Assembly: GCA_035482455.1 (NCBI GenBank)
Contig: DATHQS010000357.1
Span: 28,654-92,653 of the forward strand
Length of the DNA: 64,000 nucleotides
Source of the DNA: Candidatus Acidiferrales bacterium
GTDB lineage: Bacteria > Verrucomicrobiota > Verrucomicrobiia > Limisphaerales > UBA11358
Reading direction: 5' to 3'
The notes under the pieces are model-generated. The model saw only the letters and a program-made list of their open reading frames with translations. It had not been told where the DNA came from and did not search any database. The position numbers were made by a program, and so were the translations under genes. This document shows, piece after piece, positions 14,712 through 46,109 of this stretch (position 1 is its first letter; every line of letters starts with the position of its first letter).

Positions 14712-14785
14712 GCGGGTGTGGTTCAATGGTAGAATGTGGCCTTCCCAAGGCTGAGACGAGGGTTCGATTCCCTTCACCCGCTCCA
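14712..14785 (+). tRNA. tRNA-Gly (anticodon CCC)
   Basis: Cloverleaf read by eye: acceptor GCGGGTG/CACCCGC, D arm GTTC..GAAT, anticodon stem TGGCC/GGCTG with loop TTCCCAA, T arm GAGGG TTCGATT CCCTT, and an encoded CCA. Confidence 0.9.
14755..14785 (+). repeat. attL: 31-bp core (3' end of tRNA-Gly), identical to 45328..45358
   Basis: gacgagggttcgattcccttcacccgctcca occurs exactly twice in the window, in direct orientation. Confidence 0.9.
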
Positions 14786-14810
14786 TTCATAATCAACGAC
14801 TTATGAATGT

Positions 14811-14830
14811 GTGCAGTAAAAGTGCAGTAA
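14811..14830 (+). promoter_or_regulatory. tandem GTGCAGTAA repeats (putative integrase/excisionase arm-type sites, left arm)
   Basis: gtgcagtaaaagtgcagtaa lies 26 bp inside attL. The same 9-mer recurs near attR at 45239-45267. Confidence 0.5.
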
Positions 14831-14932
14831 ATTAACCCTCCAATACAAAGTTTTTTCTCATGCAATTCCCCTGTAAAACGAGGTGCGTTATTGAGGCGGT
14901 GTGGGGAACAGAACCGTTAAACCCAAAAAAAT

Positions 14933-15241
14933 TCAGGCTTGTTGAAGAATTTGCGCAGCGCGCGGAGGCAGGCTTGATGGGGTAGTAGCAGTATCGCCGT
15001 TGCGATGCGGGAACTTTTCGGAATGAAATCCATTTTGGTCAGTCCGCCACCTGACGAAATCCTGCCAGAAGATCACGCCGCGAAATACGGGAAAACTAGG
15101 TAGCCGAAACCACTCCCGTGCCGTCGAATATGAGATGCCGGCGGCAACGGCAAATTCCTTGGCATTCAGCGCCTGGTCCAAGCGGCGTTTCTCCATGACA
15201 TCCTTTAGCTTGATGCTGCGAAGCTGTTTATCCTGCGGCAT
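14933..15241 (-). CDS. small HTH DNA-binding protein (excisionase/AlpA-like candidate)
   Basis: 102 aa. LNAKEFAVAAGISYSTAREWFRLPSFP is an HTH-like segment. The gene is the first one inside attL. Confidence 0.5.
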   Translation of the reverse strand: MPQDKQLRSIKLKDVMEKRRLDQALNAKEFAVAAGISYSTAREWFRLPSFPVFRGVIFWQDFVRWRTDQNGFHSEKFPHRNGDTATTPSSLPPRAAQILQQA

Positions 15242-15262
15242 ATTTACCTCCGGCGTTCATAT

Positions 15263-15640
15263 CTACTGCTTGGTAAAATTGACTGCAACGGCGGTAACGT
15301 GAGTTTTTAGCGAGGCCGCGAACCGCCGGTCAACCGCCTTCACAAAATTTAAGTCACATTTCTGAATCTTCCGCGCGACGGCTTGGAGGCCACTGCCCAA
15401 CAACGTGACTTCTGCCGCGGCAAAACAGATCACCAGCTTTTCGGGTGGTGCATCGGCATTCTTTTCCAGTGCCGGATTGGGAATTGTCTCCGCATACAGC
15501 AATTGCGCGTAGGGCAGAAGATAGCTGTGTGCGTCGTCGGCATACACGTTGAGCGATGCCACGTTCGGATCAATGCCGTAACAGGGATTGTCACGCGTGC
15601 TAGACACCGATGCTTCGTCCGGGTTGGGGTTTGTGTTCAT
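15263..15640 (-). CDS. hypothetical protein (downstream of the relaxase, overlaps its 3' end by 41 nt)
   Basis: 125-aa ORF with no recognisable motif. It is co-oriented with the relaxase. Confidence 0.4.
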   Translation of the reverse strand: MNTNPNPDEASVSSTRDNPCYGIDPNVASLNVYADDAHSYLLPYAQLLYAETIPNPALEKNADAPPEKLVICFAAAEVTLLGSGLQAVARKIQKCDLNFVKAVDRRFAASLKTHVTAVAVNFTKQ

Positions 15641-18323
15641 AGGATATTTTACGTGTTTGTTCGATGCGTTTGCGGGGCGAATGGGATTGCGTTATGCGCT
15701 GGCGGAATTGTTTCAGGAAACGATGGCCGAGTTCCATGACCCGCAAGATGAATTTCTGTCGGCTGACATGCGGGACCACTTCCACGGCTGCCAGTCGCTC
15801 GCTGGAATGGGTGATATGCGAACGCAGCCGCTCGGTATCATCGGTAAAAACCTGGCAGCGTTCGCGACCGCGCGAGATGCTGACGTAAAATTGCTGCTGA
15901 TGGACGGCGGCCAGCGAACGGGACGACGCCACAACCAAAACCTCATCCACCGTCTTGCCCTGGGCGGCGTGCGACGTGACGGCGTAGCCATGCGTGAATG
16001 TGCGGTAATTTTGAGGAATCACGCGGCCATCGGCCAACACCACGGAATCGCCCTGAATCGCCCGCACCTCGACAAGTTCGCCATTGATAAACCGCTTGCC
16101 GACCGTGTTGGCTTGCAGCAACAGCTTGTCACCAGCGGCGACTTTCAATTTCCGTTTCTCCCCCACATCAAACGAGGCGAAGCCTCGACCCAATGGAAGA
16201 AAACTTTCAGAGCCATCGTCACGCTGAACTTTGATCGAATCATTTTCGACTGCGACCACCGCGACCGTTTCATCTTTGGCGAAACCAGCCTTCCGCTGGT
16301 GAAACCGTATCGCCATGCCGGGATGAAATTGCCGCGCATCTTGTTTTTGGGCTTCCGTCCACGATAACGAATCGAAAACCTCAAATTCTTTTTCTTCACC
16401 GGCCAGACGGCCGGACGTTTTCATTGCTGCCCGCACTTTCTCCGTTACCGCCTCGATTTCATTCCAAGTCGGTGCGACCAGCAATGCAGATCGGTTTTGT
16501 TCCAACGCCTTTAGGTATGACTGCGCGACCTTGTCATGCAGATTATCGTTGGAAGATTCAGTGATCGCTCCGATGCGTTCCAGTTGGACGAACGCCTCCA
16601 GCGTCCGTTTTTGTGCCGCCAGTTCGACCGCCTTGCGATACTCAGCTTTGCGCTGGCGACGGATGCGGGTCAATTGGCCGGATTGAAAATTGGAATGTTG
16701 CTCCAGAATCCGCAACGCATCACCACGCACCACCGATGCGTGCTGGCCGGTGTCGCCCGAAAGCACCACACGGGCGTCACGAGCCAGGTCAAACAGCCGC
16801 TTCATATCGTCAATGCCGACCGCCCCGGCTTCGTCCAGCACCACCAACCACCGTTCGTCCAGTTTGGGTTTCGTCAGCAGCAAACTTTGCAGTGTCTTCG
16901 CCTCGAATCCTTCCTTGCGAAGCACATCCGTCGCCGCTGCCGTCGGCGCGCAAAATAGCGGTTCGATTTTCACTTCGGCGCAGGCGGCAACCAACTCGCG
17001 TAACGCCGTGGTCTTGCCCGTGCCTGCCAGACCTCGCAGGCCGGTGATCCGGTCATGCGTGCGGAGGACATGATAAATGGCCCGTTGTTGATCCTCGCCC
17101 AGCCAGTCGGCGGGCCGGTAGCTGGGGTGAATCGGCGCAACGGTATCGCAGGCCGCATTGACCGTCTGAATCAAATCCAGTTCCGTTGCCAAAATCTGTG
17201 GCGTGGATAATCCACGCTCGGTTTTGACCAGTTGATCCGAATACTTTGCCGCTTCTTTCAACGCCGGCAAATCCAATTCACCCGGATGCTGCGCCAGCGC
17301 CACGCCCAACAGTTCATGCTCCGGCACGACCGACTTGCGCTCGAAGACATGGGCGACGGCATAATTCAGGGCTTGGTTTTCCGGTTCAAACCGGCGGACT
17401 TGCCGGACAGGTTGAACCGCCGTGGAGAGTTTTTGCAACGCCAGCAATTCATCGGGCTGTAGTTGTGCCAACTGCAGCTCGCGAACCTGAGCAGTCGAAA
17501 TGCCTTTGATCTTTTTCGCCCGGCTCTGATGCACCGCCAGGGCGATGGCATTATTCGACAATTTGCGCCCCAGTTTTTGTTCCAGTTCCCGAACCACCGC
17601 GTCACGTTGCTGGGAGCGTTTGGAAAACCGTTTTAATATCGCATCACTCACGCCCTCGATTTCAAAGCCGTGTTTCGCGGGACGAATGCGATAGCCGATC
17701 TGTTGGACGCGCTTCGCCAATTCATTGCGATAAACTGCCGTGCCGTAACGAATCGCGTCATACATTCCGCCCGCCTGTAAAGCCTTCCAGCGCTTTTCCG
17801 TTTCATCGAAGGTGGCGTTGAACACGGTGAGATGCGTGTGCAACAGCGGGTCGAGCGCCCGGCTGCTCGTGTGCGTGAACGCGGCGGCGACCAGATTGCT
17901 GGTGTTGCGGTCACGTTGATTGCCCTGCTTGCGAACTCTGGTCGCGGCGAAGGTTTCAAGTTCGCGGAACGCTATGCGCGTCGCTTCCTCATGTGCTGAC
18001 ACGAGCCGGTCGTCATCCATCGTCACCGCCAGCACCGAAACCGATTTTGGCGCGGAACAGGTGAAATCGTAAAACACGCGCCGTTGATTGGTTTTTTCCT
18101 GACGCAGTGTCAGGCGGTTATCGTCATTCGGATTTTTGTTTTCACACAGCGCGTGAAATTGATCGCGGGTTACTGCCTTGTTTAGGCCAAGGCGTTCCGC
18201 GCCCGCGCCGATCCACTGGCCGGGCCGGATTTCACCGGCGGCGTAGTAGTCGTTCTGCGCCAGATGCTCGTCGAAGTAGCTCTCGGCTCTGGCCAGCTTT
18301 TTTTGCGCGACGGCTGTGAACAT
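15600..18323 (-). CDS. MobF-family conjugative relaxase (TrwC/TraI-like) fused to a RecD-like SF1 helicase
   Basis: N-terminal AESYFDEHLAQNDYYAAG, CSAPKSVSVLA and a histidine triad (LLHTHLTVFNATF). P-loop LRGLAGTGKTTAL in the middle, and a C-terminal helicase block (YAVTSHAAQGKTVDEVLVV). Confidence 0.9.
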   Translation of the reverse strand: MFTAVAQKKLARAESYFDEHLAQNDYYAAGEIRPGQWIGAGAERLGLNKAVTRDQFHALCENKNPNDDNRLTLRQEKTNQRRVFYDFTCSAPKSVSVLAVTMDDDRLVSAHEEATRIAFRELETFAATRVRKQGNQRDRNTSNLVAAAFTHTSSRALDPLLHTHLTVFNATFDETEKRWKALQAGGMYDAIRYGTAVYRNELAKRVQQIGYRIRPAKHGFEIEGVSDAILKRFSKRSQQRDAVVRELEQKLGRKLSNNAIALAVHQSRAKKIKGISTAQVRELQLAQLQPDELLALQKLSTAVQPVRQVRRFEPENQALNYAVAHVFERKSVVPEHELLGVALAQHPGELDLPALKEAAKYSDQLVKTERGLSTPQILATELDLIQTVNAACDTVAPIHPSYRPADWLGEDQQRAIYHVLRTHDRITGLRGLAGTGKTTALRELVAACAEVKIEPLFCAPTAAATDVLRKEGFEAKTLQSLLLTKPKLDERWLVVLDEAGAVGIDDMKRLFDLARDARVVLSGDTGQHASVVRGDALRILEQHSNFQSGQLTRIRRQRKAEYRKAVELAAQKRTLEAFVQLERIGAITESSNDNLHDKVAQSYLKALEQNRSALLVAPTWNEIEAVTEKVRAAMKTSGRLAGEEKEFEVFDSLSWTEAQKQDARQFHPGMAIRFHQRKAGFAKDETVAVVAVENDSIKVQRDDGSESFLPLGRGFASFDVGEKRKLKVAAGDKLLLQANTVGKRFINGELVEVRAIQGDSVVLADGRVIPQNYRTFTHGYAVTSHAAQGKTVDEVLVVASSRSLAAVHQQQFYVSISRGRERCQVFTDDTERLRSHITHSSERLAAVEVVPHVSRQKFILRVMELGHRFLKQFRQRITQSHSPRKRIEQTRKISYEHKPQPGRSIGV

Positions 18324-18659
18324 AAAACGCGATGTTAGCGGTTTTTAAAATGGCTTCATGCCTCGTTGGCACAATCGTTAATTTTTCTACCGGTTTTCAT
18401 TTCCTATTGGCCATTTTGCCTGAACTTTCTCCCGTTGAGTTGTATGTGATACACTATATGCACTTGGCCGATGTTTTTTTCATTCGGCAACCAGTTTGGC
18501 TCAGAAAAAGCCCGCTTTTGTGTAATCTTTACATAAAATGAAAAATCTCTTTTTGGCTGAAAAAACGCGTATGTCCGTTGGTTTTATTGAGGATTATCAC
18601 TTTCCATCCGGCTGAACCTGAAATTTTTTGCAGTTTTCGCATCGAAATTATGCTTGCCT

Positions 18660-18821
18660 GGCGCTTTGACTGGCCGGGTTTCCTCCGGGCACTCGGAAAC
18701 CGGCCAGACAAATCGCCGGCAATGCGAACCTAGACGGTCGAGCACTCGACGGGCGTTTTGAAAATCCCGCGACTCCACACCGTTCCGTTCGCTCCGATTT
18801 TCAAAACGCCCGTCCAGTGCT
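18660..18821. other. structured element copy A (three stem-loops); paralogue of 19228..19415
   Basis: P1 is ctggccgggtttcc/ggaaaccggccag (18670-18707). P3 is a perfect 16-bp stem cgggcgttttgaaaat/attttcaaaacgcccg (18750-18812) with a 31-nt loop. The conserved single-stranded blocks ggcgctttga, acaaatcgccg, gaaacctag and cagtgct are shared with copy B. Confidence 0.6.
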
Positions 18822-18876
18822 GTCCCAAACTTGATTCCGCACCCGGATTATCATATCTATTTCTTGAGTGAAAAAG

Positions 18877-19062
18877 ATGTCCTTCAATCAAATAAAACGG
18901 CAGGAGGCGCAAAGCCGCATGGCCGCAATTCGCAGGGCACGCCGCAGTCCGGCGGCAGCCGCAGCAGAACAAAGACGGGCATCACTCGTCGGCAATGGAG
19001 CCAAATGGCGCATCACCAATCTCAATGAAGCCGTCCGCGCGATGGCCAAACATTGGGGATGA
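18877..19062 (+). CDS. small basic Arg/Ala-rich protein (possible relaxosome/DNA-binding accessory)
   Basis: 61 aa: MSFNQIKRQEAQSRMAAIRRARRSPAAAAAEQRRASLVGNGAKWRITNLNEAVRAMAKHWG. It lies between the two structured copies and is preceded by gagtgaaaaag. Coding status is uncertain. Confidence 0.3.
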   Translation: MSFNQIKRQEAQSRMAAIRRARRSPAAAAAEQRRASLVGNGAKWRITNLNEAVRAMAKHWG

Positions 19063-19227
19063 CTTGGAAAGGCCGCAGATCATCACCTGATTTTGACGGT
19101 CAAATAGCCTGTTCGCTTGGCAGGAGAAAACCATTCGATGGCGTAGCGTAGCATGGGGCGCGGCCTGGCATCATGATGCTGCTGGAGAAAACCCTCCAGC
19201 ACAGACTGATTCCGTTTGGAATGAATC

Positions 19228-19415
19228 GGCGCTTTGACTGGCCGGCTTGCTTCCAGGTATTCAGCAACCGACCAGACAAATCGCCGTGATGGAAACCTAG
19301 GCGGTCACGCACTCACCGGTCGTTCTAAAACCGCGCTCAACTCCGCCGTCGTCCGTTCATGCCACTTCCGACCTGCTCCGTTTCGCTGCCGGTTTCAGAA
19401 CGCCCGGTCAGTGCT
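19228..19415. other. structured element copy B (diverged paralogue of 18660..18821)
   Basis: Same block order as copy A, with P1 ctggccggcttgc/gcaaccgaccag and P3 accggtcgttctaaaaccg/cggtttcagaacgcccggt. The stems differ in sequence from copy A but remain complementary. Confidence 0.6.
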
Positions 19416-19554
19416 TGGCTATTTGCTCATGGACGCATCAATTTGAGGTGTTCAGTCGAACGGAATCTTTGGCGGCTTTCTGGAATTGGAAAGCCGGTCA
19501 TTTTGGTTAGACACCATCCCCTTATCAAAAAATAAGGGCGGAAGACGAGCAACG

Positions 19555-20400
19555 GCCGCGCAATTTCCGGGCAATTTCCGCGCAACGTCCGACGCAACAT
19601 CCGGTGAATCATCCGCGCAATTACCGAGCAACTGCCGAGACGTGTCCGGGCAGTTGGCGGGAAACGTCTCACCAAACTCCGGTGAATGTTCGCGCCAAAG
19701 TTCGCACCAAAGTTGGCACGATGGTTCGCAAATGACTTGGTAATTACCGCCGCAGTCCACGCCGCAGTCCGCGCTGCATCCAGCGTGGTATCCGGCGCAG
19801 TATCCGCTGAATCATCCGGGCAATTGCCGGGTAACTTCCGAGCAGTGTCCGAGCAGTTGGCGGGAAACGTCTCACACAACGCCGGTGAATGTCCGCACCA
19901 TGGTTGCCGCAACGGCTCGCAGGCGACTTGGCAATTGCCATAGCAGTCCGCGCCGTAGATCACGCAGCAGACAGGTTGGCATCCACTGAGCAGTCCGCGC
20001 AGTGTCCGGCTTGGCGTCCGGGCAACATCCGATGAATCATCCAGAGAATTTCCGGGCAATTTCCGGGCAGCGTCTGGGCGATTTTTGCATGAAACGCGCA
20101 CCGGCCTGGAACTTTCCAGAGATTTTTCCAGTTTTTCCAATGGCAACGGCTTTTCCGTGGCAAGACACATTCCACGTTCGCGACGAGTCCACAAACATGT
20201 CTGCGTCCAGTCCGTGACCGAGACCCCATTTTGTCCGTGTCCGCACATAATCCGCGTTAACGATTTCTCCGCGACCTGACGGTGTCCAGTCCTCAAATTG
20301 ACCGCGAACACGGTTTACCCATGTCCAGCCTGGACCGCGCACAGTCCGAATTTTTGGTCAGTCCATGGCCTCATCCAGTCCGCGACCGCGACCGCAGTTT
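19555..20400. repeat. ~850 bp array of degenerate 11-bp phased repeats (consensus about gCAnTnTCCGn / cAGTCCG), organised in ~2.5 higher-order ~200-bp units
   Basis: One run reads caatttccggg caatttccgcg caacgtccgac gcaacatccgg tgaatcatccg cgcaattaccg agcaactgccg agacgtgtccg ggcagttggcg. A second run reads cgcagtccacg ccgcagtccgc gctgcatccag cgtggtatccg gcgcagtatcc gctgaatcatc cgggcaattgc. Long-range repeat 19601-19790 vs 19795-19960 vs 20025-20100. ORFs are open in several frames on both strands. Confidence 0.7.
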
Positions 20401-20499
20401 AGGACAAATACGGTCCAACCCCCCTCGCCATGTTAAAAAACTTATTCACAGGCTTGGCGTTGGCAGCCAGGGACGGGACCAACTTCGGGCAAGGATGGG

Positions 20500-20520
20500 A
20501 TGAATTTTCGGAAAATTCAT
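20500..20520. promoter_or_regulatory. perfect 9-bp inverted repeat atgaatttt-cgg-aaaattcat (operator/hairpin candidate)
   Basis: Read directly from the sequence. It sits in the intergenic AT-rich stretch between the repeat array and the protease operon. Confidence 0.25.
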
Positions 20521-20720
20521 TTTGTGAATCTTCCGATAGAAATTTAACGTTGAATTTTTCCGGCTTGAAGTAGTAGAAATCTGTTTGCTTTTAACAAACA
20601 TCCCGGTCACCGCCAAGCGCGTCTGGTGAACGCAGTTTTAAAATGAAATTGCCACTGCGCGACAAATGCTGAATTTTGCCCTCCTTCGCAGGTTTGTGAC
20701 CGACTCTGGCGATGGGGGGA

Positions 20721-20936
20721 TTAATTGGCGTCGGGACCTTGGACGAAATCATTAGTCTTTTTGGCCTGAAATAATTTTGCTGGGACGAAAGGTTCAGACG
20801 TCGGTGAGAACGAGGTGTTTTCGATCTGCTTAATCAAGCTGTCAGAGCAGGAAGAATCGCTGCTCCAACCAGCTGATTTTGATGAATCGGAATAGTCCAC
20901 ATAGGACACATTGTCGGCTGAATTTTTTTTATGCAT
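20721..20936 (-). CDS. small acidic Ser/Asp-rich protein (71 aa), 8-nt overlap with the upstream protease gene
   Basis: MHKKNSADNVSYVDYSDSSKSAGWSSDSSCSDSLIKQIENTSFSPTSEPFVPAKLFQAKKTNDFVQGPDAN. No known domain. The alternative start at 20957 would also overlap the protease gene. Confidence 0.45.
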   Translation of the reverse strand: MHKKNSADNVSYVDYSDSSKSAGWSSDSSCSDSLIKQIENTSFSPTSEPFVPAKLFQAKKTNDFVQGPDAN

Positions 20937-21963
20937 TTTCGTGCCTCCATCCATCAAATGAACGCTGGTCTTGAATTTGATTTAACGGTGCTCCAGGCAT
21001 GTTGATTCGGTTCAACGTCCCTTCGGTGGCAAAATAGTCGCTGCCGCCAGTTGTGCTCTCAATCAAGCCGCGTTTCAGGTTGTAGTTCACTGTAGGTTTG
21101 ACTCCCAAATAGGTGTTCGGATCAAATTTTGTCTTAAAATCTAACTCGACGGCTATGTCGTCGTAAATCGTTTTTATCAGTTTGTACAACTCATCGCTCG
21201 GCTTTTCGGCCGGTAATCCCATGGCTACGGATTCACGGCGATGCAGTGTGTAGTCATGGCTGCCAGACTCACTGCATAAAAACTTAACGATGGCCTCGAT
21301 TTTAGGCTTATCCTGCATCTGGTTGGAAAGCAACTTCCGGGCCAGCATTTGGATTTGGCTCTTGGTGCGATGGACTTGCCCCAGGACCAAGGGATGAACG
21401 TGGTCTGCCAATTTCATGATCACCGAAGTCAACCCTTCGGCTGATTTTATGCCGGCCCCTTCTTTGCAAAGCTCAATGAATCCATTCACTGATTCAACAC
21501 TGACCGGAAATTTTGCGTTGTTGGAGGCGGCGGGAATTATGGGGTTGAGAGCCGTGGTAATGCTGGGGTCGATGGGGCCAATGGTGGCCTGCTTGGTCAT
21601 CACAATCCTGTTCGCGCCCAAGCAGATCAGCGTCCCCGCACTGTGCGCCTTAGAGGGGACAACGACTTCAAACTCGTCGCAAAATTGCCGGATTAGATTG
21701 ACCAAGCTCCACGCCGTCAGCGTAGAGCCCCCACGCGTATATAAATAAAGGGAAATCTTCTTCTGGACACCAATCAAATCCAAATGATTCGTGAACAAAT
21801 CATAGACTTCAGGATGAATCTCGGTTTCTAATCCCGGCCGGTCACTTGTGATGTATGCAATGACGCGGGAACTTCTGTCTTTTTCCAACTCGGCATATTT
21901 TGCCTTCCGATGTGTATACATTTTTACCCTTAAATGCTTTTGTGGTTTGGAACGCCCGGACAT
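20929..21963 (-). CDS. SDH-family Clp-fold (ClpP/SppA-like) serine protease
   Basis: RVIAYITSDRPGL ... ISLYLYTRGGSTLTAWSLVNLIR ... VVVPSKAHSAGTLICLGANRIVMTKQATIGPIDPS is the pattern of the serine dehydrogenase proteinase (Clp fold) family. I chose the ATG at 21963. Confidence 0.7.
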   Translation of the reverse strand: MSGRSKPQKHLRVKMYTHRKAKYAELEKDRSSRVIAYITSDRPGLETEIHPEVYDLFTNHLDLIGVQKKISLYLYTRGGSTLTAWSLVNLIRQFCDEFEVVVPSKAHSAGTLICLGANRIVMTKQATIGPIDPSITTALNPIIPAASNNAKFPVSVESVNGFIELCKEGAGIKSAEGLTSVIMKLADHVHPLVLGQVHRTKSQIQMLARKLLSNQMQDKPKIEAIVKFLCSESGSHDYTLHRRESVAMGLPAEKPSDELYKLIKTIYDDIAVELDFKTKFDPNTYLGVKPTVNYNLKRGLIESTTGGSDYFATEGTLNRINMPGAPLNQIQDQRSFDGWRHENA

Positions 21964-22068
21964 AACTATCAATTTTATTAATCATGCGCAAGGTTTTTCA
22001 AACTCTGCCGCGCCACTCCACCACATAGATTGACGCGCCGCAAATTCCCAAGCAAACTGCCACGCACA

Positions 22069-29570: not shown

Positions 29571-29616
29571 ATCCAATTAGTTTAATAATTTGGAGATGAT
29601 TAATAGGTAAAAATCT

Positions 29617-30726: not shown

Positions 30727-30854
30727 TGCTGAGCATGACAACGACAACAATGACGATGATGATGACCACCACCACCACCACCGCCGCCGCCGCCACCAAG
30801 ACGATAACGAACAGGAGTCAGTGTGCGGTAACAATTTCAAAAATAAGGGATTAA
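30726..30854 (+). CDS. 42-codon Thr/Met/Ala-rich mini-ORF bridging two genes (leader-peptide-like)
   Basis: MLSMTTTTMTMMMTTTTTTAAAATKTITNRSQCAVTISKIRD. Its ATG overlaps the AbiEii stop (tgATG) and its TAA lies 4 nt before the next ATG at 30859. It contains (ACC)6 and (GCC)4 runs. Whether it is translated is unproven. Confidence 0.35.
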   Translation: MLSMTTTTMTMMMTTTTTTAAAATKTITNRSQCAVTISKIRD

Positions 30855-30858
30855 AATC

Positions 30859-33180: not shown

Positions 33181-33205
33181 CCCACCACCAAAGCCAAACT
33201 AATCT

Positions 33206-36261: not shown

Positions 36262-36284
36262 GTCGCGGTCTGGTTTTGGGTCAA

Positions 36285-36316
36285 GCTGCCCCTGCCACCG
36301 GCAGCATTTCTTTTCC
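36285..36316 (+). terminator. weak rho-independent terminator candidate after the 505-aa gene
   Basis: gctgcc-cctgccacc-ggcagc followed by atttcttttcc. Confidence 0.35.
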
Positions 36317-36500
36317 AACGAGTTACCTGCTGGGTGGCGGCATCGTGGAAAAACTTGGGATTGAACGCTTTATGCCCTGATTCGATTTTTTGGCGCGGCT
36401 CAATTATCTTTGAATGGCTATGGTGGGTTGGACAGCCTTTGTCCAACCGGCTTTGAGATGATTGTCAAAAAGCTTTAAAAGCACGAAATGCGGCAATAGA

Positions 36501-37538: not shown

Positions 37539-37650
37539 ATCAATGCGTTTGGTGTCCCTGCTCGAATACTGGCCCAAGCAGCCTCCATCGTCGGGATGGC
37601 TTGGATGTCATTGACACTGGCCCACCAATTCCCTGACCCTGGCCTTGTCC

Positions 37651-38631: not shown

Positions 38632-38648
38632 TTCTGGCCTTGGATTCT

Positions 38649-39524
38649 TCACAACGATTCCGCCATGGCGATGGTTTCAAACTCCGAACAGATTTCCGGA
38701 TGGTTGGCGTTCAGATACCGGACGACCTTCCCGTTCTTGAGCAGGTTTTTGACATAGGTTTGCGCCGTTTGCAGGGTGAACATGTTTTCCGTGTAGGTAT
38801 CCGTGACGGCTTTTAATTCCCGTTCCAGCGATTCCATTTCACTTTCCATCCGGGCGATGTCCTCCGCCGACATGCCGGCTTTTCGCTTCGGCTCATCCGG
38901 GTTCACTAACTGATGCTTGGGCGTGCCCAGGACCATGGCCTCGGCGTAGCCGACAACGTAGTTGTTCATCGCGACCATCATTTCCGCCATTTCAATCTGC
39001 CGGTTTCCATTCACGCTCTTGAACAGCCTCAGGGCTTTCGGACAGATGTTTTTGTCTTTCAATAATTCGGCCGCGTCCGGATGAATCCCTTTGAGCAGGT
39101 TGATGGAGGCTTGCACCACCCGCAGCGGCATGTTCAAAACCACGGCCAGCCGCTCCGGGCTGACGCCGTTGTTCACAGCTTTGACGATCATCTTGTGCTC
39201 CTGGATCGGCGGCAACCGGCTAATGCGGGCGTTGTAGGTGTAGCACTCGTCATCCGTGGCGATGATGCAGTCGGCTTCGGTTTTGCCCAAATCTTTCAGG
39301 GCAAAATAACGGAGGTGCCCGTTTTTCAGCATATACTTTCCCGGCGCATCTTTTTGCGGATAGACCACCAACGGTTCCACCAGACCCATGTCTGGAATGG
39401 AGCCAAGAATCGCCTTGAACCGATAGGTCTCCTTATCCACCTCTTTAACTAGGCGCATTGGTAGGATGTCATCCAGCGGCAACTGGATTTTCCGCAGTTC
39501 AAAGGCAATTTTCGGTTCACTCAT
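38649..39524 (-). CDS. ParB/Srx N-terminal-domain protein (ParB-like 1)
   Basis: GLVEPLVVYPQKDAPGKYMLKNGHLRYFALKDLG (ParB box with GxxR). The start overlaps the upstream gene's stop (ATGA at 39521-39524). Confidence 0.75.
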   Translation of the reverse strand: MSEPKIAFELRKIQLPLDDILPMRLVKEVDKETYRFKAILGSIPDMGLVEPLVVYPQKDAPGKYMLKNGHLRYFALKDLGKTEADCIIATDDECYTYNARISRLPPIQEHKMIVKAVNNGVSPERLAVVLNMPLRVVQASINLLKGIHPDAAELLKDKNICPKALRLFKSVNGNRQIEMAEMMVAMNNYVVGYAEAMVLGTPKHQLVNPDEPKRKAGMSAEDIARMESEMESLERELKAVTDTYTENMFTLQTAQTYVKNLLKNGKVVRYLNANHPEICSEFETIAMAESL

Positions 39525-40408
39525 GCTGTTTGTTTGATTTGGGGTGAAAGTTTGACCGACAAATATTTTGGCATCGTCGCCAGGCCTTCGGCTCGTAACA
39601 GCGTGCCGAAATTTTCATCCGCCAGCAGCTTGTTGAAGCCCGTCACAATAAAACCCAGCTTGGCATCACACACCTTCGCCTTTTTGATCATCAACTTCTG
39701 TCGCTGGCTCTCCTTGCGGTACGAATTGACCATGCTTTCCATGCTGGTCTTGGGTTTGGCGTCGGATGACTTGCCGCCACGCTGCTTGCCAATCAGTCGC
39801 CGGCTCTCGATTAGCCCTTTGACGTATTTCAGGGATTTGTAGTCGAGCTGCTTTTCCTCGTAGGCTTTCAGCAGTTCGCGCTGGGTCTCCAGCGTGTCGG
39901 TCTTGGCAATGTCCACCGCGATCCACAGGGGAATCTTTCCGGTGACGGCGGCCTCCAGCAACCGCTCCTCGCCCGCGTTGCTCAGGCTCGAATAGGCCCG
40001 GACCAGGCTGTCGCTCACGTCCAACTTTTCGCTGATTTCTTTGATTGTATTGCCCAAAGCCTGCAACCGTTCGATTTCCCGGATCAAATCCATTGGCTTT
40101 GGATAACGCCGGGCGATGTTTTCCACGAGGCTGCGGACCAGCAGTTCCTGCTTTGTAATTTCCGAAACAATGGCCGGTATTTCTTTATGCCCGAGCGCCC
40201 GGAAGGCTTCCATCCGTCCCTGTCCGCAAATTAAATCATATCCGGCCACTTCATGCTCGCTCGCGTGGCGGCGGCTGACTTGAATCGGCATTTTCAGGCC
40301 AACATTTCTGATGCTCTTGATGATGATCTCAAACTTTTTCGGGTCTCGATGACGTGGATTGACCACGCGGATTTTCTCAATGCGTATCAATTCGATTACC
40401 TCACTCAT
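39521..40408 (-). CDS. ParB/Srx N-terminal-domain protein (ParB-like 2) with HTH
   Basis: IRVVNPRHRDPKKFEIIIKSIRNVGLKMPIQV...YDLICGQGRMEAFRALGHKEIPAIV. The preferred ATG at 40408 overlaps the recombinase stop (ATGA at 40405-40408). Confidence 0.75.
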   Translation of the reverse strand: MSEVIELIRIEKIRVVNPRHRDPKKFEIIIKSIRNVGLKMPIQVSRRHASEHEVAGYDLICGQGRMEAFRALGHKEIPAIVSEITKQELLVRSLVENIARRYPKPMDLIREIERLQALGNTIKEISEKLDVSDSLVRAYSSLSNAGEERLLEAAVTGKIPLWIAVDIAKTDTLETQRELLKAYEEKQLDYKSLKYVKGLIESRRLIGKQRGGKSSDAKPKTSMESMVNSYRKESQRQKLMIKKAKVCDAKLGFIVTGFNKLLADENFGTLLRAEGLATMPKYLSVKLSPQIKQTA

Positions 40409-41952
40409 GCGAGTTCCTCCAGCTTCACGCGTTCCGCCATGCCGAAGAAACAATCCAATGTGTCAAACCGGTAGGTATCCAGACAAATGCCGTTGGCCTC
40501 CGCCACCCGGAGGTTTTCCCAGGTCATATCCAGCCCCGGCAGCACATAGTAATCGCGGATGCCCTCATTCGCGGCATCCATCCGCACGGCAATGGTGACG
40601 TCGGGTCGGGCGCTGGCATCCAGCCGGATAAGCCAGCGCGACGAACCAGTGCCCGTTTCCGTATGCCGGCACAGCACGATCGACACGCGCATTTCACCGT
40701 TTAGCTCCAGCAATTCAGTTGCGTCGTTCCAGACAGCTTGCGCTCCCAGGTCAGAAATCTTCTGGACCACTTCGGCCACCAACTCCGGGTGACGTTTCCG
40801 CAGCCGCCGGTTTTCTTCGATGAAGCTGAAATCAATCCCGGGGTCGTAGCCGATAAGTTTGTAAGCGCTGACGAGGGTTCCGAAGCGATGCCGAAACGCC
40901 GTGCTCGATGGCAGGCCTTCCGCTTCGTCTATCAGGATGCCCGAGATGCGTCCGTGTTTTAATAACACGGCACGCAGTTTTTCCAGCATCTCTTCATCGG
41001 TCAGCTTCTGGCTTCTTGCCAGGATGATTTCATGTGCCCGCCAGAACAGGTCCGGCTCCACGACGCCCTCAAAAGCGCCATCCGCCCGGATCCATTTGTC
41101 CGGCGGGTTGTTCACGTGCTTTTTCTTCAACTTGCACGAGGTCCGGTGATACACGTTGTTGCCGATGTATTTCTCATTGGTCAGGATTTGATGCACCGTT
41201 CCCCGGTTCCATTCCCGCCCAAAATCAGTCTTCACGCCCTGCCCATTGAGGATGGTTGCGATCTCGGATTCCATCTTCCCTTCATTGATAAATGACTCGA
41301 AAATCCACCGGACGATGATTGTTTCTTCTTCCGGCCCACGCACCAACACCACGCGGTCGGTCTGGATGCTTTTTTGTTCACCCATCTTGAGCGTCGCCTT
41401 CCGTTCTCCGCTCTGGTCGATCAGCATCCGGCGCAAGCCGAACCCCGCCGTCCCGCCTTGCTTGTAACCGAGTTGGATCAACCGGCACGCGCCTTGAAAC
41501 ACCTTTGAGGACAGCTCACGGCTGTATTCGCCCGCCATGGCCCGCTTCACGCCCTTGACGATGGTGGACACCGGACTGCCGTCATTCTCAAATTGCTCCG
41601 CACAGTAGTGGACCGAAACGCCCGCCCGGCGGCAGATGTATTCGTAATAAGCGCTTTCATCGGCATCCTGAAACCTACCCCACCGGCTCACGTCATAGAC
41701 GAGGATGTTGGCAAACTCCGCTCGTCCTTCCTGGACATCTCGCAGTATTTGCGCCAGCGAGTCGCGACCTTGTATGTTTAGCCCGCTTTTGCCCTCGTCC
41801 GAATATTCCTTCACAATATTCAACTCGCGCCGCTTGGCGTATTCGCGGATCACGTCCATCTGGTTGCTGGTTGAATACTGCTGATGCTCCGTGGACATGC
41901 GCACATACACGGCGGTGCAGTTCGTCCATCGCTCTTGATTGGCCCGGCTCAT
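40405..41952 (-). CDS. large serine recombinase (resolvase/invertase N-domain plus recombinase domain)
   Basis: AVYVRMSTEHQQYSTSNQ (catalytic Ser block), ILVYDVSRWGRF, GVKRAMAGEYSRELSSKV, then a large C-terminal extension. Confidence 0.9.
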   Translation of the reverse strand: MSRANQERWTNCTAVYVRMSTEHQQYSTSNQMDVIREYAKRRELNIVKEYSDEGKSGLNIQGRDSLAQILRDVQEGRAEFANILVYDVSRWGRFQDADESAYYEYICRRAGVSVHYCAEQFENDGSPVSTIVKGVKRAMAGEYSRELSSKVFQGACRLIQLGYKQGGTAGFGLRRMLIDQSGERKATLKMGEQKSIQTDRVVLVRGPEEETIIVRWIFESFINEGKMESEIATILNGQGVKTDFGREWNRGTVHQILTNEKYIGNNVYHRTSCKLKKKHVNNPPDKWIRADGAFEGVVEPDLFWRAHEIILARSQKLTDEEMLEKLRAVLLKHGRISGILIDEAEGLPSSTAFRHRFGTLVSAYKLIGYDPGIDFSFIEENRRLRKRHPELVAEVVQKISDLGAQAVWNDATELLELNGEMRVSIVLCRHTETGTGSSRWLIRLDASARPDVTIAVRMDAANEGIRDYYVLPGLDMTWENLRVAEANGICLDTYRFDTLDCFFGMAERVKLEELA

Positions 41953-42068
41953 GTCATTTGTTTCGGTATTGTTTCAAGTTTTTGTGAAGCCTCCGGCCCA
42001 AAGCCGGCAGGCATTTTCATGATGGCAGAAGTGCGCGAGCGGTAACGATGAAATCTTTGTAGCGCAAT

Positions 42069-42341
42069 TTAGCATCGGCGGAATAAGGGGAATGTGCGTT
42101 TCCAATAGTAGGGATTGGCCTTGCGCCATATCCGGACTCGCTCCACCTCACCTGGTCCGCCCCCCAGTTTCCGATTCCCAGGTTTTGCCAGCCATTGCTT
42201 CTGGCTCAAAATCTTGCTGGCCTTGCGACAACGTGCCCGCGTGCAGAACCGTTGGTGGTGATGATTACGCGGATCGGTGGTGAACAAATGTTTGCAAGAT
42301 AAACATCTGCGACTGCTGCCGTTGCGGTGTGTGTGTTTCAT
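42069..42341 (-). CDS. small Cys/His-rich zinc-ribbon-like basic protein
   Basis: MKHTHRNGSSRRCLSCKHLFTTDPRNHHHQRFCTRARCRKASKILSQKQWLAKPGNRK... has a CxxC...C..C pattern. I prefer the internal ATG at 42341 over the track start at 42497. Confidence 0.45.
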   Translation of the reverse strand: MKHTHRNGSSRRCLSCKHLFTTDPRNHHHQRFCTRARCRKASKILSQKQWLAKPGNRKLGGGPGEVERVRIWRKANPYYWKRTFPLFRRC

Positions 42342-42490
42342 ATTACACACCACCGCGCGTCTCAACGCGACGAACCGGCAGGGGAAATGGCTCTCAACCG
42401 CAGGAAGATTTTTGCAGCCGCGCCGGGCGCGGCTCAAATTACGCCCCATTGGGCCGTTCTGGTCAATGATGAATTGCGCCCTAATAGGGC

Positions 42491-42715
42491 GTGCCACGGG
42501 ACGCCAAAATTCACGCTCAACTGAAGAAATTCGGCGCGAGTATCCGTCGCGAACGGACCGCCAAGGGCATTACACAGGAGAAACTTGCCGAACTGGTTGA
42601 TTTGAACATCCGGTCGGTGCAGAAAATCGAAGCCGGACAAATTAACGTTCTAGTGACAACGACGATGCGGATTCAGAACGCGTTGGACTGTCCTTGGGGC
42701 AAGTTGATGTCATGA
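42491..42715 (+). CDS. XRE-family HTH transcriptional regulator
   Basis: LKKFGASIRRERTAKGITQEKLAELVDLNIRSVQKIEAGQ. GTG start. Confidence 0.8.
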   Translation: MPRDAKIHAQLKKFGASIRRERTAKGITQEKLAELVDLNIRSVQKIEAGQINVLVTTTMRIQNALDCPWGKLMS

Positions 42716-42948
42716 GCAAAGTTTGGCTGTTTGCATTTGCATACCGAGCGTGCCTCGTGCCTCCATTATATGGCTCGCTCACGCCGTCAATGTAGTGCGC
42801 CCTGTCGCCCGTCGCCTCCACATTGACTGCGTTCGCTTCGCCAAGGGATGGCACTTAGGATTCACGCTCGGAGTCTGCATGTCTGGTTTTGAGAAATGGA
42901 TGGCGTAATGCTGCACCAGCAATTGCGGAAGTGGAAAGTCGGTCAAAT

Positions 42949-44100
42949 TTATTCGGCTGGCTTCAAGCGTGCTGGTTCTTCAAGAATGTCGAGCAATGCC
43001 TTGGCACAATAAACCCGGTCGCGTTTCGCATCACCCGATTGCTTTACAATTCCAAGTCGTTCCAGCCGCTCAATGGCGCGTTGCGCTGTGGTAAAAGCCA
43101 CACCGAGTTTTTCAGCCGCGCCTTTGGCGGTGATGAAAGGATTCGCGGCCAGGAGTTCCACCACGCGCAGTGGTGCATTCGTCGAATCACCGGCAACTTT
43201 CTTTTGCCATTCAATCAGCTTGCTATTGATGCGCGCCGCCCGGCTCAGCGCATCTTCGGACATCCGGGCCACGCCTTGCAAAAAGTATTCAAGCCATTCA
43301 TTCCACTCGCCACGTTCGCTGACGCCACGCAGCCCGTCATAATAATCCCGGCGCGCGGCTTCAAAAAATGCGGACAGATATAGCAGCGGTGTCGGCAAAA
43401 TCTCTCGCTCAATCAAGAATAAGGTAATCAGCAAACGGCCGACGCGCCCGTTGCCGTCCAAAAAAGGGTGAATTGCCTCGAACTGGTAATGCGCCAGCGC
43501 AATCGTGACCAGCGGCGGCAGGTCTGATTCATGCAGAAACTTTTCCCAGGCCGCCAGGCACGTTTCAACATCATCAGGCGGTGGCGGGATGAACGACGCG
43601 GTTGCCAGCGTGCTACCGGGCTTGCCGATCCAGTTCTGAATTTTGCGAAAGCGTCCCGGCGAAGCTTGTTGCCCCCGCACATCGGTCATGAGTTTCTCGT
43701 GCAATTCGCGGATGATGCGGACACAAAGCGGAAGTTCCTTGAGACGGACAATGCCATGTTCAAGTGCCACGACATAATTGCCAACCTCCCGCAGGTCATC
43801 GGGGCTGCGATCCACGGCTACACCGGCCTCCGCCGCCAGCAATTCGCCCAATGTCGCTTGCGTGCCCTCAATCTTGCTGGACAGCACGGCCTCGCGTTGC
43901 AGAAACGGACGCATCAATATGTGCGGATTGGGCAGGCGCCCGCCTTCGCCGGCCAATTTGCCGATTAAACGGTCGGCGTCTGACAGCACGCGGATCAACC
44001 GGGGCGTCCAATCGAGCTTCGGCGGCAGAGGCGCAGGCATAAAGGCCGCGTAGGTGCCTTGCGGCACTTTCTTGCCCGGAATGTTTGATTTGCTGGCCAT
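42949..44100 (-). CDS. Fic/DOC family protein (AMPylase-type) with N-terminal Fic_N and C-terminal wHTH
   Basis: Fic motif HPFLDGNGRVGR (about 43440-43478) and an inhibitory-helix-like SSKIEGT ([ST]xxxE[GN]) in the N-terminal region. Confidence 0.9.
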   Translation of the reverse strand: MASKSNIPGKKVPQGTYAAFMPAPLPPKLDWTPRLIRVLSDADRLIGKLAGEGGRLPNPHILMRPFLQREAVLSSKIEGTQATLGELLAAEAGVAVDRSPDDLREVGNYVVALEHGIVRLKELPLCVRIIRELHEKLMTDVRGQQASPGRFRKIQNWIGKPGSTLATASFIPPPPDDVETCLAAWEKFLHESDLPPLVTIALAHYQFEAIHPFLDGNGRVGRLLITLFLIEREILPTPLLYLSAFFEAARRDYYDGLRGVSERGEWNEWLEYFLQGVARMSEDALSRAARINSKLIEWQKKVAGDSTNAPLRVVELLAANPFITAKGAAEKLGVAFTTAQRAIERLERLGIVKQSGDAKRDRVYCAKALLDILEEPARLKPAE

Positions 44101-44198
44101 CGGTTACTTTCGATAATGAAAATACCACACGCCGTTATTTTCACAAAAGCTAAAAAACGATAATAGCGCACTTTGCTATTTTCGCAGTTGAAACCGTG

Positions 44199-45233
44199 TT
44201 AAGCCGCAAATTGAACCGCGTCCCGCCATTGCGCCACGTCCTCGACCTTCTCACGCTGGTAGATTTGATGAATCAATTCCGAGGCGTGATTGACCAGACG
44301 CATGGCCGCTTCACGCGGCACGCCCGCGCGACGCAACCGATTGACGTAGGTAACGCGCAGGCAATGGAATGTCAGATGCGTTTTCTTGATCTTGATGAAA
44401 AATTGCTGCCACCGCCGCGACGGTTGAAATGGGAATTCGACGGTAAATTTTTGTTTCGATTTGCGGATGCGTTCCAACAGCGGACGCAAAGCCGTCGGCA
44501 TCGGCACGGAGAACGCCCGATCTTCGCCGCCCTTGGGCGATGGGAACGTGATTTTATTTTCCACAAAATCAATGCAGTTGACCGGAATCCGCGTTTCACG
44601 CAACCGGCAACCGGTGTGCAGGGAAATATCAAAAGCCGTCTGCATCCATTCCGGTTCATCTTTCAACGCGGCCCGAATCTCGCTGATCTCGGCATCGGTC
44701 AATTCCGGCTTTTTAGCCGCCTTGTCCCGTTTCAATTTCATGCTCATCAGTGGATTGGCGTCGGCATGGCCAAGTCGCACCGCTTCACCCATGATCAGGG
44801 CAAATGTTTTTATTTCAAAAATCGCCGTGTTGCGACCAACAGTTTTGCCGGTTTTTTTCTTGTAGCTCGTGCGCCAGTCCAGATATTCAAGGGTGTTGCG
44901 GTAGGTGATGGCACGAGGCGAATGGTAGTGCTTTTCTTGCAGCCAGAACGCCAGCCATTTCCACGCATCAAGGTAACGCTCCAATGTGAGCGGGCTTTCG
45001 CAGTGCCGTTCCAAGTATTGCGGCACCCAGGAATCCCAATTGCCGCCCGTGATTTCGCCGGCAGTGCGATTGAGTTCTTTGGCTTCAAGCTGCGCCCGCA
45101 GGGCGCGCGCCTTGACGGTTTCGCCGGGATTGTCCGCCCGGAAGCCGGTGGATTTGTTGCGTCGTGTGCCGTCGGCGTCAATGAATTGAACAAACCAAAA
45201 CGGCGAGTTTTGCTTTTTATAAATGGATGCCAT
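44199..45233 (-). CDS. tyrosine-type site-specific integrase
   Basis: MASIYKKQNSPFWFVQFIDADGTRRNKSTG (phage-integrase SAM-like N-terminus), C-terminal FHCLRVTYVNRLRRAGV...LVNHASELIHQIYQR (H-x-x-R ... Y). The gene lies 95 bp from attR. Confidence 0.9.
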   Translation of the reverse strand: MASIYKKQNSPFWFVQFIDADGTRRNKSTGFRADNPGETVKARALRAQLEAKELNRTAGEITGGNWDSWVPQYLERHCESPLTLERYLDAWKWLAFWLQEKHYHSPRAITYRNTLEYLDWRTSYKKKTGKTVGRNTAIFEIKTFALIMGEAVRLGHADANPLMSMKLKRDKAAKKPELTDAEISEIRAALKDEPEWMQTAFDISLHTGCRLRETRIPVNCIDFVENKITFPSPKGGEDRAFSVPMPTALRPLLERIRKSKQKFTVEFPFQPSRRWQQFFIKIKKTHLTFHCLRVTYVNRLRRAGVPREAAMRLVNHASELIHQIYQREKVEDVAQWRDAVQFAA

Positions 45234-45238
45234 AGCCA

Positions 45239-45267
45239 GTGCAGTTTGTGCAGTAAGCTTACTGCAC
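45239..45267. promoter_or_regulatory. GTGCAGT(AA) repeats, two direct plus one inverted (arm-type site candidates, right arm / int promoter region)
   Basis: gtgcagtttgtgcagtaagcttactgcac sits immediately upstream of the integrase ATG. The same 9-mer occurs at 14811-14830. Confidence 0.5.
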
Positions 45268-45327
45268 AACATCGCGAAATGCCAGCAAATAAGGCTATTC
45301 CACACCACTTTACACCACTATGCCCGT

Positions 45328-45358
45328 GACGAGGGTTCGATTCCCTTCACCCGCTCCA
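45328..45358 (+). repeat. attR: 31-bp copy of the tRNA-Gly 3' end
   Basis: Exact match to 14755..14785. No upstream tRNA body is present, so it is a remnant or duplication created by integration. Confidence 0.9.
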
Positions 45359-46098: not shown

Positions 46099-46109
46099 AA
46101 CATTCCCTT

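Follow-up and report, generated by a model that had tools for sequence, protein, structure and literature searches.

We identified a genomic island at positions 14755-45358 of a 64-kb stretch of DNA from contig DATHQS010000357.1; this whole stretch of 64,000 nucleotides is referred to here as the window. The island lies between the 3' end of a tRNA-Gly gene and a second copy of that end. It is likely to be an integrative mobilizable element (IME), present in a single integrated copy and with mostly defence cargo, whose mobility we infer from the sequence. The bacterium that hosts it belongs to Limisphaerales (Verrucomicrobiota) and is an uncultured inhabitant of soil or peat.

Ends, mobility genes and transfer region of the island

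ARAGORN detected a single tRNA gene in the window, a tRNA-Gly(CCC) on the plus strand, and Rfam agreed. The 31-mer forming its 3' end, GACGAGGGTTCGATTCCCTTCACCCGCTCCA, is present in exactly two copies in the window, at 14755-14785 and 45328-45358, just as an earlier note on this DNA had claimed; our search tolerated up to three mismatches, and the chance expectation based on 100 shuffles was zero matches. Because unlike sequence adjoins the two copies from the very next base on either side, the length of the repeat is exactly 31 bp and the unit measures 30,604 bp. The left and right attachment sites (attL and attR) are composed as follows:

14712-14785, plus strand: tRNA-Gly(CCC), the last 31 bp of which (14755-14785) are the attL core
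14786-14835, plus strand: attL-side arm, with the inverted repeat TTCATAA..TTATGAA and, after it, two direct copies of the 11-bp unit GTGCAGTAAA(A), at 14811 and 14822
45236-45327, plus strand: attR-side arm, with two direct copies and one inverted copy of GTGCAGTTTGTGCAGTAAGCTTACTGCAC and two ACCACT repeats
45328-45358, plus strand: attR core, an exact duplicate of the tRNA 3' end

Of the six occurrences of the motif GTGCAGT in the window, four are in the arms, at 14811 and 14822 on the attL side and at 45239 and 45248 on the attR side; an inverted copy is at 45261, and the ACCACT pair is immediately 5' of the attR core. In many related loci (given as L numbers), the family attL arm, TTCATAATCAACGACTTA.. 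followed by two 11-bp repeats, is placed after tRNA-Gly or after a second core copy, and sub-families carry the variants GTGCAAGTAAA or GTGCAGGAAAA. The window-type attL arm was found in 11-12 other species loci and in 4 secondary copies. In L016, L081, L085, L082-84, and L090, the attR arm, GTGCAGTT(T/A)GTGCAGTAAGCTTACTGCAC with the ACCACT pair, is likewise kept in the interval from the integrase start to the core. This layout matches the expectation for arm-type binding sites of a complex attP, and the repeats are putative binding sites. The junction running from the Fic gene through the integrase gene and attR into the downstream DNA recurs in independent assemblies. The GC content of the island is 0.538 compared with 0.597 and 0.619 in the flanks, and this lower value supports a foreign origin of the island.

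We used the following criteria to classify the island. An IME has flanking direct repeats at a specific site, a site-specific recombinase, and its own relaxase and/or origin of transfer (oriT) and has neither a complete mating-pair formation system nor a coupling protein, whereas an integrative and conjugative element (ICE) has its own type IV secretion system (T4SS), with a VirB4-type ATPase and a coupling protein. The direct repeats are attL and attR, and the mobility genes are these (HTH, helix-turn-helix):

44199-45233, minus strand: tyrosine integrase of 344 aa adjoining attR (PF00589, 5e-10; PHROG integrase, 2e-32)
14933-15241, minus strand: 102-aa HTH protein, a probable excisionase/directionality factor (weak PHROG HTH match, 3e-3)
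15263-15640, minus strand: 125-aa relaxase partner (no library match; directly downstream of the relaxase gene in 77 of 80 related loci)
15600-18323, minus strand: MobF (TrwC/TraI-type) relaxase of 907 aa with a C-terminal SF1B helicase (PF08751, 3e-77; AAA_30, 1e-39; NCBIfam MobF, 8e-64)

Thus, the recombinase is the integrase, the relaxase is of the MobF type, and a block at 18439-18539 is the candidate oriT. The integrase, the HTH protein, and the relaxase had been named in the earlier note, and library matches confirmed all three, the match for the HTH protein being weak. In the integrase translation, read by eye, the candidate catalytic motifs GCRLRE, HCLR, and NHAS..IY are at the positions expected for a tyrosine recombinase; in a comparison by sequence with solved structures, no match was close enough to confirm the catalytic residues. 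Homologues of the integrase form 760 clusters at E <= 1e-20, mostly of 344 aa, and more than 120 clusters have at least 77% identity. The 102-aa HTH protein travels with this integrase family (97% identity in L009, 69% in L081, and 52% in L082-84, with the integrase adjoining), and its gene adjoins the relaxase module in L090-L098. The homologue in L082 gave a weak HTH_17 match, and a further similarity search with the protein gave noise only.

The relaxase scored 216 bits with the NCBIfam MobF model, which has a cut-off of 100. When the protein was aligned to F TraI and R388 TrwC (5n8o, 1omh), a Tyr was found opposite TraI Tyr16 (SYF), and the YY pair (NDYY), the H..HxH block HTSSRALDPLLHTH, and the helicase Walker A motif GLAGTGKT were retained. 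By comparison with TraI and TrwC, we take the aligned SYF, YY, and histidine positions to be catalytic. With this Tyr, the three-histidine site, and the C-terminal helicase, the protein has the features of the MOBF family. The closest plasmid relaxases in PLSDB, from Runella, Planctomycetes, and Paludisphaera, are 30-34% identical to it. The 125-aa partner is probably a relaxosome accessory protein.

In Pfam and NCBIfam scans of 21 selected island open reading frames (ORFs) of at least 100 aa, we detected no T4SS or coupling-protein families. Neither the window nor any of 80 relaxase loci contains the T4SS genes of the related ICE-type element in L082. The island therefore has the gene set of an IME and lacks the T4SS that would make it an ICE, in line with the earlier description of it as mobilizable and not self-transmissible. 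The same note reported no replication genes. Pfam indeed detected no replication-initiator families among the island genes; a serine recombinase with two ParB/RepB-like genes (38649-41952) had been overlooked.

We propose that the integrase, with the 102-aa HTH protein as excisionase, would recombine attL with attR to generate a circle in which the relaxase, partner, and HTH genes, attP, and the integrase gene would lie in one orientation. The expected junctions are ..CACCACTATGCCCGT + 31-bp core + TTCATAATCAACGAC.. for attP and ..CCAAGGCTGA + core + ATTTCAGAATCCCC.. for attB. The relaxase would nick an oriT situated immediately upstream of the relaxase gene, within the conserved non-coding region, a single strand would be exported via the mating apparatus of a co-resident conjugative element, and in the recipient the integrase would insert the element at tRNA-Gly, so that the tRNA is restored.

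The region upstream of the relaxase gene, 18324-20930 (~2.6 kb), consists of structured DNA without a credible gene and is conserved at 73-97% across the family; its previous reading as genic, including a 294-aa ORF at 19427-20311, has been abandoned. Its features are as follows, with the strand given where one was assigned (ssDNA, single-stranded DNA):

18439-18539: candidate oriT core, which contains three short inverted repeats and shows no variation among 20 related elements
18655-18835: double-hairpin element, copy 1 (stems of ~24 and ~26 bp; ssDNA fold z = -8.6)
18868-19062, plus strand: putative small ORF of ~60 aa (segment conserved at the DNA level)
19223-19430: double-hairpin element, copy 2 (ssDNA fold z = -3.9)
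19551-20085: non-coding repeat array of ~203-nt units with phased 11-nt repeats (CCGGGCAATTT-like)

The block at 18439-18539 is the best oriT candidate. It is located ~120-220 bp upstream of the relaxase start, and its inverted repeats are TTTTGTGTAA-N3-TTACACAAAA, TTGCCGAATG-A7-CATCGGCCAA, and GGTGTAT-CAC-ATACACC. The stretch TTTNGTGT|AT resembles the nick regions of F and R388.

The double-hairpin unit has a length of 180-205 nt and comprises two long hairpins. We collected 57 distinct copies from related elements, with 1-3 copies per element, and all copies, the two of the window and 55 further ones in L086-L165, are invariably in the non-coding region upstream of the relaxase gene. Four pairs of stem 1 switch among UA, GC, and CG in 5-17 sequences, i.e., they change in a compensatory manner, and the stem 2 variants GCAGT../..ACTGC and GGACGT../..ACGTCC stay complementary. 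The counts of wobble pairs versus A:C mismatches in the stems gave no decisive pointer to the strand or to the type of molecule (ssDNA or RNA), and promoter-like sites were no commoner in the hairpin elements than in shuffles. With Rfam, the double-hairpin element had no match, and no known RNA family besides the tRNA was found in 14-57 kb; a sub-threshold match to mir-598 was dismissed because it falls on an (ACC)11 microsatellite at 30765-30798, between the genes for AbiEii and a UvrD-like protein.

In the repeat array, the 11-nt repeats are phased at about one helical turn, and the array is conserved at the DNA level with a copy number that varies among relatives. It may be a protein-binding array for a relaxosome accessory or ParB-like protein. 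The 294-aa ORF overlaps this array and has a Cys/Arg/Trp-rich translation. Because the repeat periods are not multiples of 3 and the ORF is not conserved in homologous regions, we treated it as non-coding, and it is probably repeat DNA. By analogy with relaxosome accessory sites and with the single-strand promoters repeated in the F leading region, the features upstream of the relaxase gene may serve nicking, priming, or early expression.

The element family and its integration site

A relative of the relaxase is encoded on 422 metagenome stretches, of which we examined the relaxase neighbourhoods in 80 fetched loci, apparently on environmental metagenome contigs. In these loci, the relaxase is 78-95% identical to that of the window, and several also carry the HTH gene. 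The order relaxase-partner-HTH-tRNA in L098 is as in the window, while the relaxase module adjoins the integrase at the attR end in L090, L093, and L120. Within 10 kb upstream of the relaxase gene, 21 related elements carry type I, II, and III restriction-modification genes, a MADS component, and metabolic and other genes. This variety supports that defence cargo is frequent in the family without being universal. Elements with TrbI and other transfer genes (L082 and L083) have integrases that are 86% identical, and elements of this type are plausible helpers that would share the att site.

Two related loci are decayed. L009:12949-15600 retains the partner gene, an HTH gene with 97% identity, and, of the relaxase gene, only the last 32 codons, and in L063:11379-11960 the attL arm is joined to the segments that flank the Fic gene in the window, with neither a Fic nor an integrase gene.

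In the window, glnD (PF08335, 1e-35, plus ACT domains) ends 60 bp before the tRNA gene and is preceded by a gene for an ECF sigma factor. Scanning for GlnD with one genome per species, we obtained 80 loci (the best 92% identical), which are labelled Verrucomicrobiia, Limisphaerales, or "subdivision 3" nearly throughout. Sixty of these 80 species loci hold sequence downstream of the tRNA. Among these 60, the window-type arm is present in 11-12; other arm types, each with its own short direct-repeat pair, are present in 17, 4, and 3 loci based on a motif search and, for a fourth type, in 3 loci identified by eye. In some of the 60, the tRNA leads straight to chromosomal genes, as in L024, where an apparent ORF (ATG by eye) begins 8 nt after the tRNA. 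Two to three copies of the tRNA 3' end, i.e., extra cores and tandem islands, were found in 6 of the 80 loci (L014, L016, L027, L041, L062, and L077). A 75% identical integrase is located just inside the second core copy in L016 and is followed by a mini-island, and distant integrases (21-23% identical) are located inside the distal core copy in L014, L027, and L062. Judged by these arms and repeats, glnD-tRNA-Gly is an integration hotspot for at least five element families.

The earlier note had suggested comparing related genomes for an unoccupied site and held that finding none would speak against the island. Related species have unoccupied as well as otherwise occupied sites, which answers this point at the level of the family; the exact empty site of the window genome was not found. 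Specifically, a search of the JGI metagenomes for the anticodon arm plus tRNA 3' end plus right flank gave 0 matches, and the Logan contig L169 starts within the 31-bp repeat and is compatible with attR and an empty site alike. Window positions 45359-57000 had no match in the 80 related glnD loci, and the ancestral right neighbour of the tRNA can, therefore, not be reconstructed. Site occupancy that differs between species and near-identical modules in different contexts lend indirect support to mobility.

The window population is represented in public assemblies by ENA k141_1680229 (99.995% identity), a JGI contig, a Logan contig, and a 106-kb NCBI TPA contig. The NCBI records with identical proteins (locus tags VK815_) bear the name "Candidatus Acidoferrales bacterium", which conflicts with the synteny of glnD and tRNA-Gly and with the close relatives, all of which point to Limisphaerales (Verrucomicrobiota). 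By these comparisons, the NCBI contig with the VK815_ tags is probably mis-binned or mislabelled. Several GTDB loci of the same set are likewise oddly labelled (Bifidobacteriaceae, Acidoferrum).

Cargo of the island and the neighbouring transposon

Defence-type genes total 18.1 kb of the island, close to the ~20 kb given in the earlier note. Grouped into anti-phage and anti-DNA modules, they comprise the PLD-SNF2, methyltransferase::AbiEi, and AbiEii operon, a UvrD helicase paired with a DUF262-HNH protein, an Mrr-type nuclease, a dCTP-deaminase-fold protein with an HNH nuclease, an SDH protease, and SoFic. In order, the cargo genes are:

20929-21972, minus strand: SDH-type ClpP-like serine protease (PF01972, 7e-16; phrog_11747, 7e-57)
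22030-25386, plus strand: PLD(HKD)-nuclease/SNF2 helicase fusion, gene 1 of 3 in an operon (PLDc_2, SNF2-rel_dom, and Helicase_C; PADLOC HKD+Snf2, 7e-41)
25383-29570, plus strand: N6-adenine methyltransferase, Eco57I/type IIG-like, with TaqI_C as its specificity domain and an AbiEi-like domain (DUF6577) at the C-terminus
29617-30726, plus strand: AbiEii nucleotidyltransferase toxin (PF08843, 5e-22; PADLOC AbiEii, 1e-81)
30859-33180, plus strand: UvrD-family helicase resembling GajB and NERD+UvrD
33206-34516, plus strand: GmrSD_N (DUF262) + HNH nuclease
34744-36261, plus strand: 505-aa protein with a C-terminal Mrr_cat restriction-endonuclease domain (PF04471, 9e-5; no PADLOC match)
36462-37538, plus strand: dCTP-deaminase/dUTPase-fold domain plus coiled coil (PF22769, 2e-16; TIGR02274, 1e-20, below the curated cut-off)
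37645-38631, plus strand: HNH_2 nuclease (PF13391, 4e-9; PADLOC HNH, 4e-23)
38649-39524, 39521-40453, and 40405-41952, minus strand: RepB-like protein, ParB_N+RepB protein, and large serine recombinase (library scan; recurrent block)
42069-42497, minus strand: 142-aa protein that travels with the serine-recombinase module
42491-42715, plus strand: XRE-type HTH protein of 74 aa resembling restriction-modification controller (C) proteins (C.AhdI, 5e-8; C.BclI, 2e-7)
42949-44100, minus strand: Fic + winged-HTH protein of the SoFic type (Pfam Fic_N/Fic; PADLOC SoFic, 2e-117)

The three-gene operon at 22030-30726 is conserved across phyla. The trio is kept as an operon in Geobacter sp. DSM 9736 (47% identity) and Luteolibacter sp. 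GHJ8 (45%), and a 77% relative is present in another island, alongside the RepB-ParB-serine-recombinase trio and an integrase. Loci with relatives of the operon are L166, L167, L175, and L177. The AbiEi-like domain (PADLOC AbiEi, 3e-25; DUF6577, 8e-25) forms the C-terminus of the methyltransferase, and there is no separate antitoxin gene. The methyltransferase::DUF6577 architecture occurs in many phyla. In a split variant, a methyltransferase without DUF6577 has PLD-SNF2 upstream, and a separate DUF6577 gene and then AbiEii are found three genes downstream. The occurrence of the same gene set in fused and split forms argues for a functional link. In the literature searched, we found no paper on DUF6577 and no description of a trio of AbiEii, SNF2, and Eco57I proteins.

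Several known systems were considered for these genes. A type IIG enzyme, which would hold nuclease, methyltransferase, and specificity domains in one polypeptide, was rejected, as Pfam finds no nuclease domain in residues 1-230 of the methyltransferase and the PLD nuclease is on the upstream SNF2 protein. DISARM and BREX were rejected, as the matches to DrmD, DrmMI, and PglX are only partial and no DrmB (DUF1998), PglZ, or BrxC was found among the island proteins. Hma was considered for the SNF2/methyltransferase pair and was not adopted. Tentatively, the operon might be an undescribed, phylum-spanning "guarded" restriction system in which a restriction-modification-like pair, made up of the PLD-SNF2 nuclease-motor and the Eco57I-type methyltransferase, would be coupled to an abortive-infection toxin, such that loss or inhibition of the methyltransferase would release AbiEii; we regard this as possible rather than probable. 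Fusion of the AbiEi antitoxin domain to the methyltransferase would make the coupling to the toxin a physical one, and a phage anti-restriction protein is an example of an inhibitor that would free AbiEii. Such guarded-restriction logic is analogous to that of PrrC/EcoprrI.

Among the other cargo genes, the deaminase-fold protein and the HNH_2 nuclease (36462-38631) could form an undescribed two-gene defence module, as judged from their sequences; the deaminase-fold protein had no significant match in PADLOC, where it gave a marginal partial match to DruC (5.6e-4). The Fic gene is precisely missing between conserved flanks in L063. The segment at 42730-42890, between the controller-like HTH gene and the Fic gene, is shared, at 74-91% identity, by five loci that otherwise differ (L063, L122, L148, L156, and L162) and could be a small gene or regulatory site.

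The serine-recombinase module with the 142-aa gene (38649-42497 in the window) recurs with 69-78% DNA identity in L028 (14352-17969), L094 (2607-6522), and L122 (7072-11073) and at the protein level in ERZ1426548, and its position and orientation vary between islands. ParA is not present in this four-gene block. Because the homology stops at gene boundaries, the ends of an element are not definable. We found no literature on the serine-recombinase/ParB/RepB trio. The likeliest roles of the module would be to resolve or maintain (partition) the excised circle or to move independently.

To the right of attR is a separate Mu-like element of ~11 kb (window 45440-56600; genes at 45736-56366), and HlyD/AcrB genes follow from 56725. 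The earlier note had placed mdtA directly to the right of the island. With the Mu-like element between attR and HlyD/AcrB, a tRNA-Gly/mdtA junction is not the expected empty site. The Mu-like element has nine genes, of which that for an HTH repressor (46876-47772, minus strand) alone has a family in Pfam, NCBIfam, or PADLOC. The large proteins are one of 538 aa, a DDE-type transposase of 826 aa (phrog_310, 5e-32), and a MuB/TnsC-like ATPase of 500 aa (PHROG DNA-transposition ATPase, 9e-8; weak TnsC match). None of the three had a match in Pfam, NCBIfam, PADLOC, or PDB by sequence, and only PHROGs matched the transposase and the ATPase. The transposase family comprises 118 clusters, all annotated as hypothetical, one of which carries Mu-transpos_C. 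GTGCAA/TTGCAC motifs are in opposite orientation at the two ends of the element.

Relatives of the Mu-like element (L170-L174) are compact units of ~11-12 kb at unrelated chromosomal sites, with transposases that are 55-57% identical (L170:2661-14106 and L174:1651-12914) and with the same layout as in the window, i.e., repressor, variable part, ~530-aa protein, transposase, and AAA_22 ATPase. In some relatives, a gene for an HK97-type Phage_capsid protein (484-659 aa) is located between the repressor and transposition genes; the window copy is without it. A transposon of this kind, in which the capsid gene is the one recognisable phage gene, might represent a transposable satellite.

Alternative explanations and known systems

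Several points weigh against mobility of the island. No excised circle, attP junction, or exact attB was recovered, every population copy carries the island, and a helper conjugative element is not in the window. The matches behind the excisionase role of the 102-aa HTH protein are weak, and the nick site is a candidate only. The data are metagenome assemblies, in which the attL junction comes from one assembly together with the same arrangement in L009 and L098. The decayed loci L009 (truncated relaxase) and L063 (no integrase) support that some family members are immobile remnants, and the window element could have been recently inactivated in ways invisible in sequence. These observations would also suit a fixed defence island, i.e., a remnant of a mobile element or of a larger ICE without transfer genes, in which the integrase and relaxase are relics; decayed relatives are at the same site, neither a circular form nor an empty site was found, and ICE-type relatives share the integrase family. 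We consider a fixed island unlikely, as the two core copies are identical, neither the integrase nor the relaxase is truncated and both have catalytic motifs, and the relaxase, its partner, and the upstream block are kept at 78-97% in dozens of contexts with no T4SS within 10 kb. Such conservation of the module across contexts is better explained by a stable mobilizable lineage than by decay that took place independently many times.

Alternatively, the island may be a composite that arose by accretion, with at least two elements (a relaxase unit and a serine-recombinase unit) fused within one att pair. This is a serious possibility, somewhat short of probable. The serine-recombinase/ParB/RepB/142-aa block stands alone near tRNA-Gly with a different arm type in L028 and is at other positions or orientations in L094, L122, and ERZ1426548; the relaxase module is at the attL end in the window versus beside the integrase in L090, L093, and L120; tandem arrays are common at the site; and the Fic gene is a discrete insertion relative to L063. 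Against this, the island contains no third or degenerate core, the best internal match being 68% identical and inside a coding gene. With no internal core, the present structure would excise as one unit, and a composite origin is thus compatible with an IME. A phage satellite or cryptic prophage is very improbable. The SDH/ClpP-like protease matches phage families (phrog_11747, 7e-57, and weakly a head-maturation protease) and the integrase is of the phage-integrase family, but none of the scans revealed a gene for a capsid, portal, terminase, tail, or lysis protein in the island, which has a full MobF relaxase-helicase and an oriT-like region.

As an IME, the island would be a clean, well-delimited mobilizable defence island in the under-explored Verrucomicrobiota and part of a large family rather than a one-off, apparently abundant in peat and soil metagenomes and in competition with at least four other element families for one tRNA-Gly site; a brief literature search on this phylum gave no paper centred on integrative elements. 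The locus can serve as a natural catalogue of the defence genes that uncultured soil bacteria carry, and it supplies a tRNA-specific integrase whose att arms are defined. Two testable side leads are the methyltransferase::AbiEi/AbiEii/PLD-SNF2 operon and, near oriT, the double-hairpin elements with their covarying stems. Current ideas on mobile elements are not overturned.

The relaxase shares with TrwC of R388 and TraI of F the TrwC-fold N-terminal domain, the catalytic Tyr, the histidine triad, and the C-terminal SF1B helicase. It is shorter, with 907 aa versus 1756 aa in TraI; TrwC has 966 aa. Unlike TrwC and TraI, it is without linked coupling-protein or T4SS genes, and, in the libraries searched, its 125-aa partner showed no similarity to TrwA or TraY. 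The operon is like AbiE type IV toxin-antitoxin systems in having an AbiEii toxin gene after an AbiEi-like domain and like type IIG/ISP enzymes in having an Eco57I/MmeI-like methyltransferase with a TaqI_C specificity domain. It is unlike both in that the AbiEi-like domain is fused to the methyltransferase and the PLD and SNF2 nuclease-motor is a separate upstream protein.

For the hairpin units, the repeated single-strand promoters in the F leading region (PMC13478746) provide an analogy. Both are repeated, GC-rich long hairpins near oriT with more than one copy per element; in contrast to the F promoters, no -35/-10 boxes were identified in the hairpin elements, and the likeness is a resemblance only. 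IMEs inserted in tRNA genes, a kind treated in reviews of IMEs and "hitcher" elements (e.g., PMC11389934), have a tyrosine integrase, att repeats, their own relaxase, no mating-pair apparatus, and variable cargo including defence genes, all of which apply to the island. Relative to such IMEs, the island differs in its Verrucomicrobiota host, in a relaxase that is 30-34% identical to any PLSDB plasmid MobF, in its double-hairpin units and phased 11-nt repeats, and in being known from sequence alone. Finally, in defence islands on integrated mobile elements (a subject of PMC10201445, PMC10121019, and PMC11551731), several unrelated defence modules are stacked within an integrase-bounded element at a tRNA hotspot, as they are here. 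Compared with such islands, we see no difference in principle, and the island described here is another instance from an under-sampled phylum.

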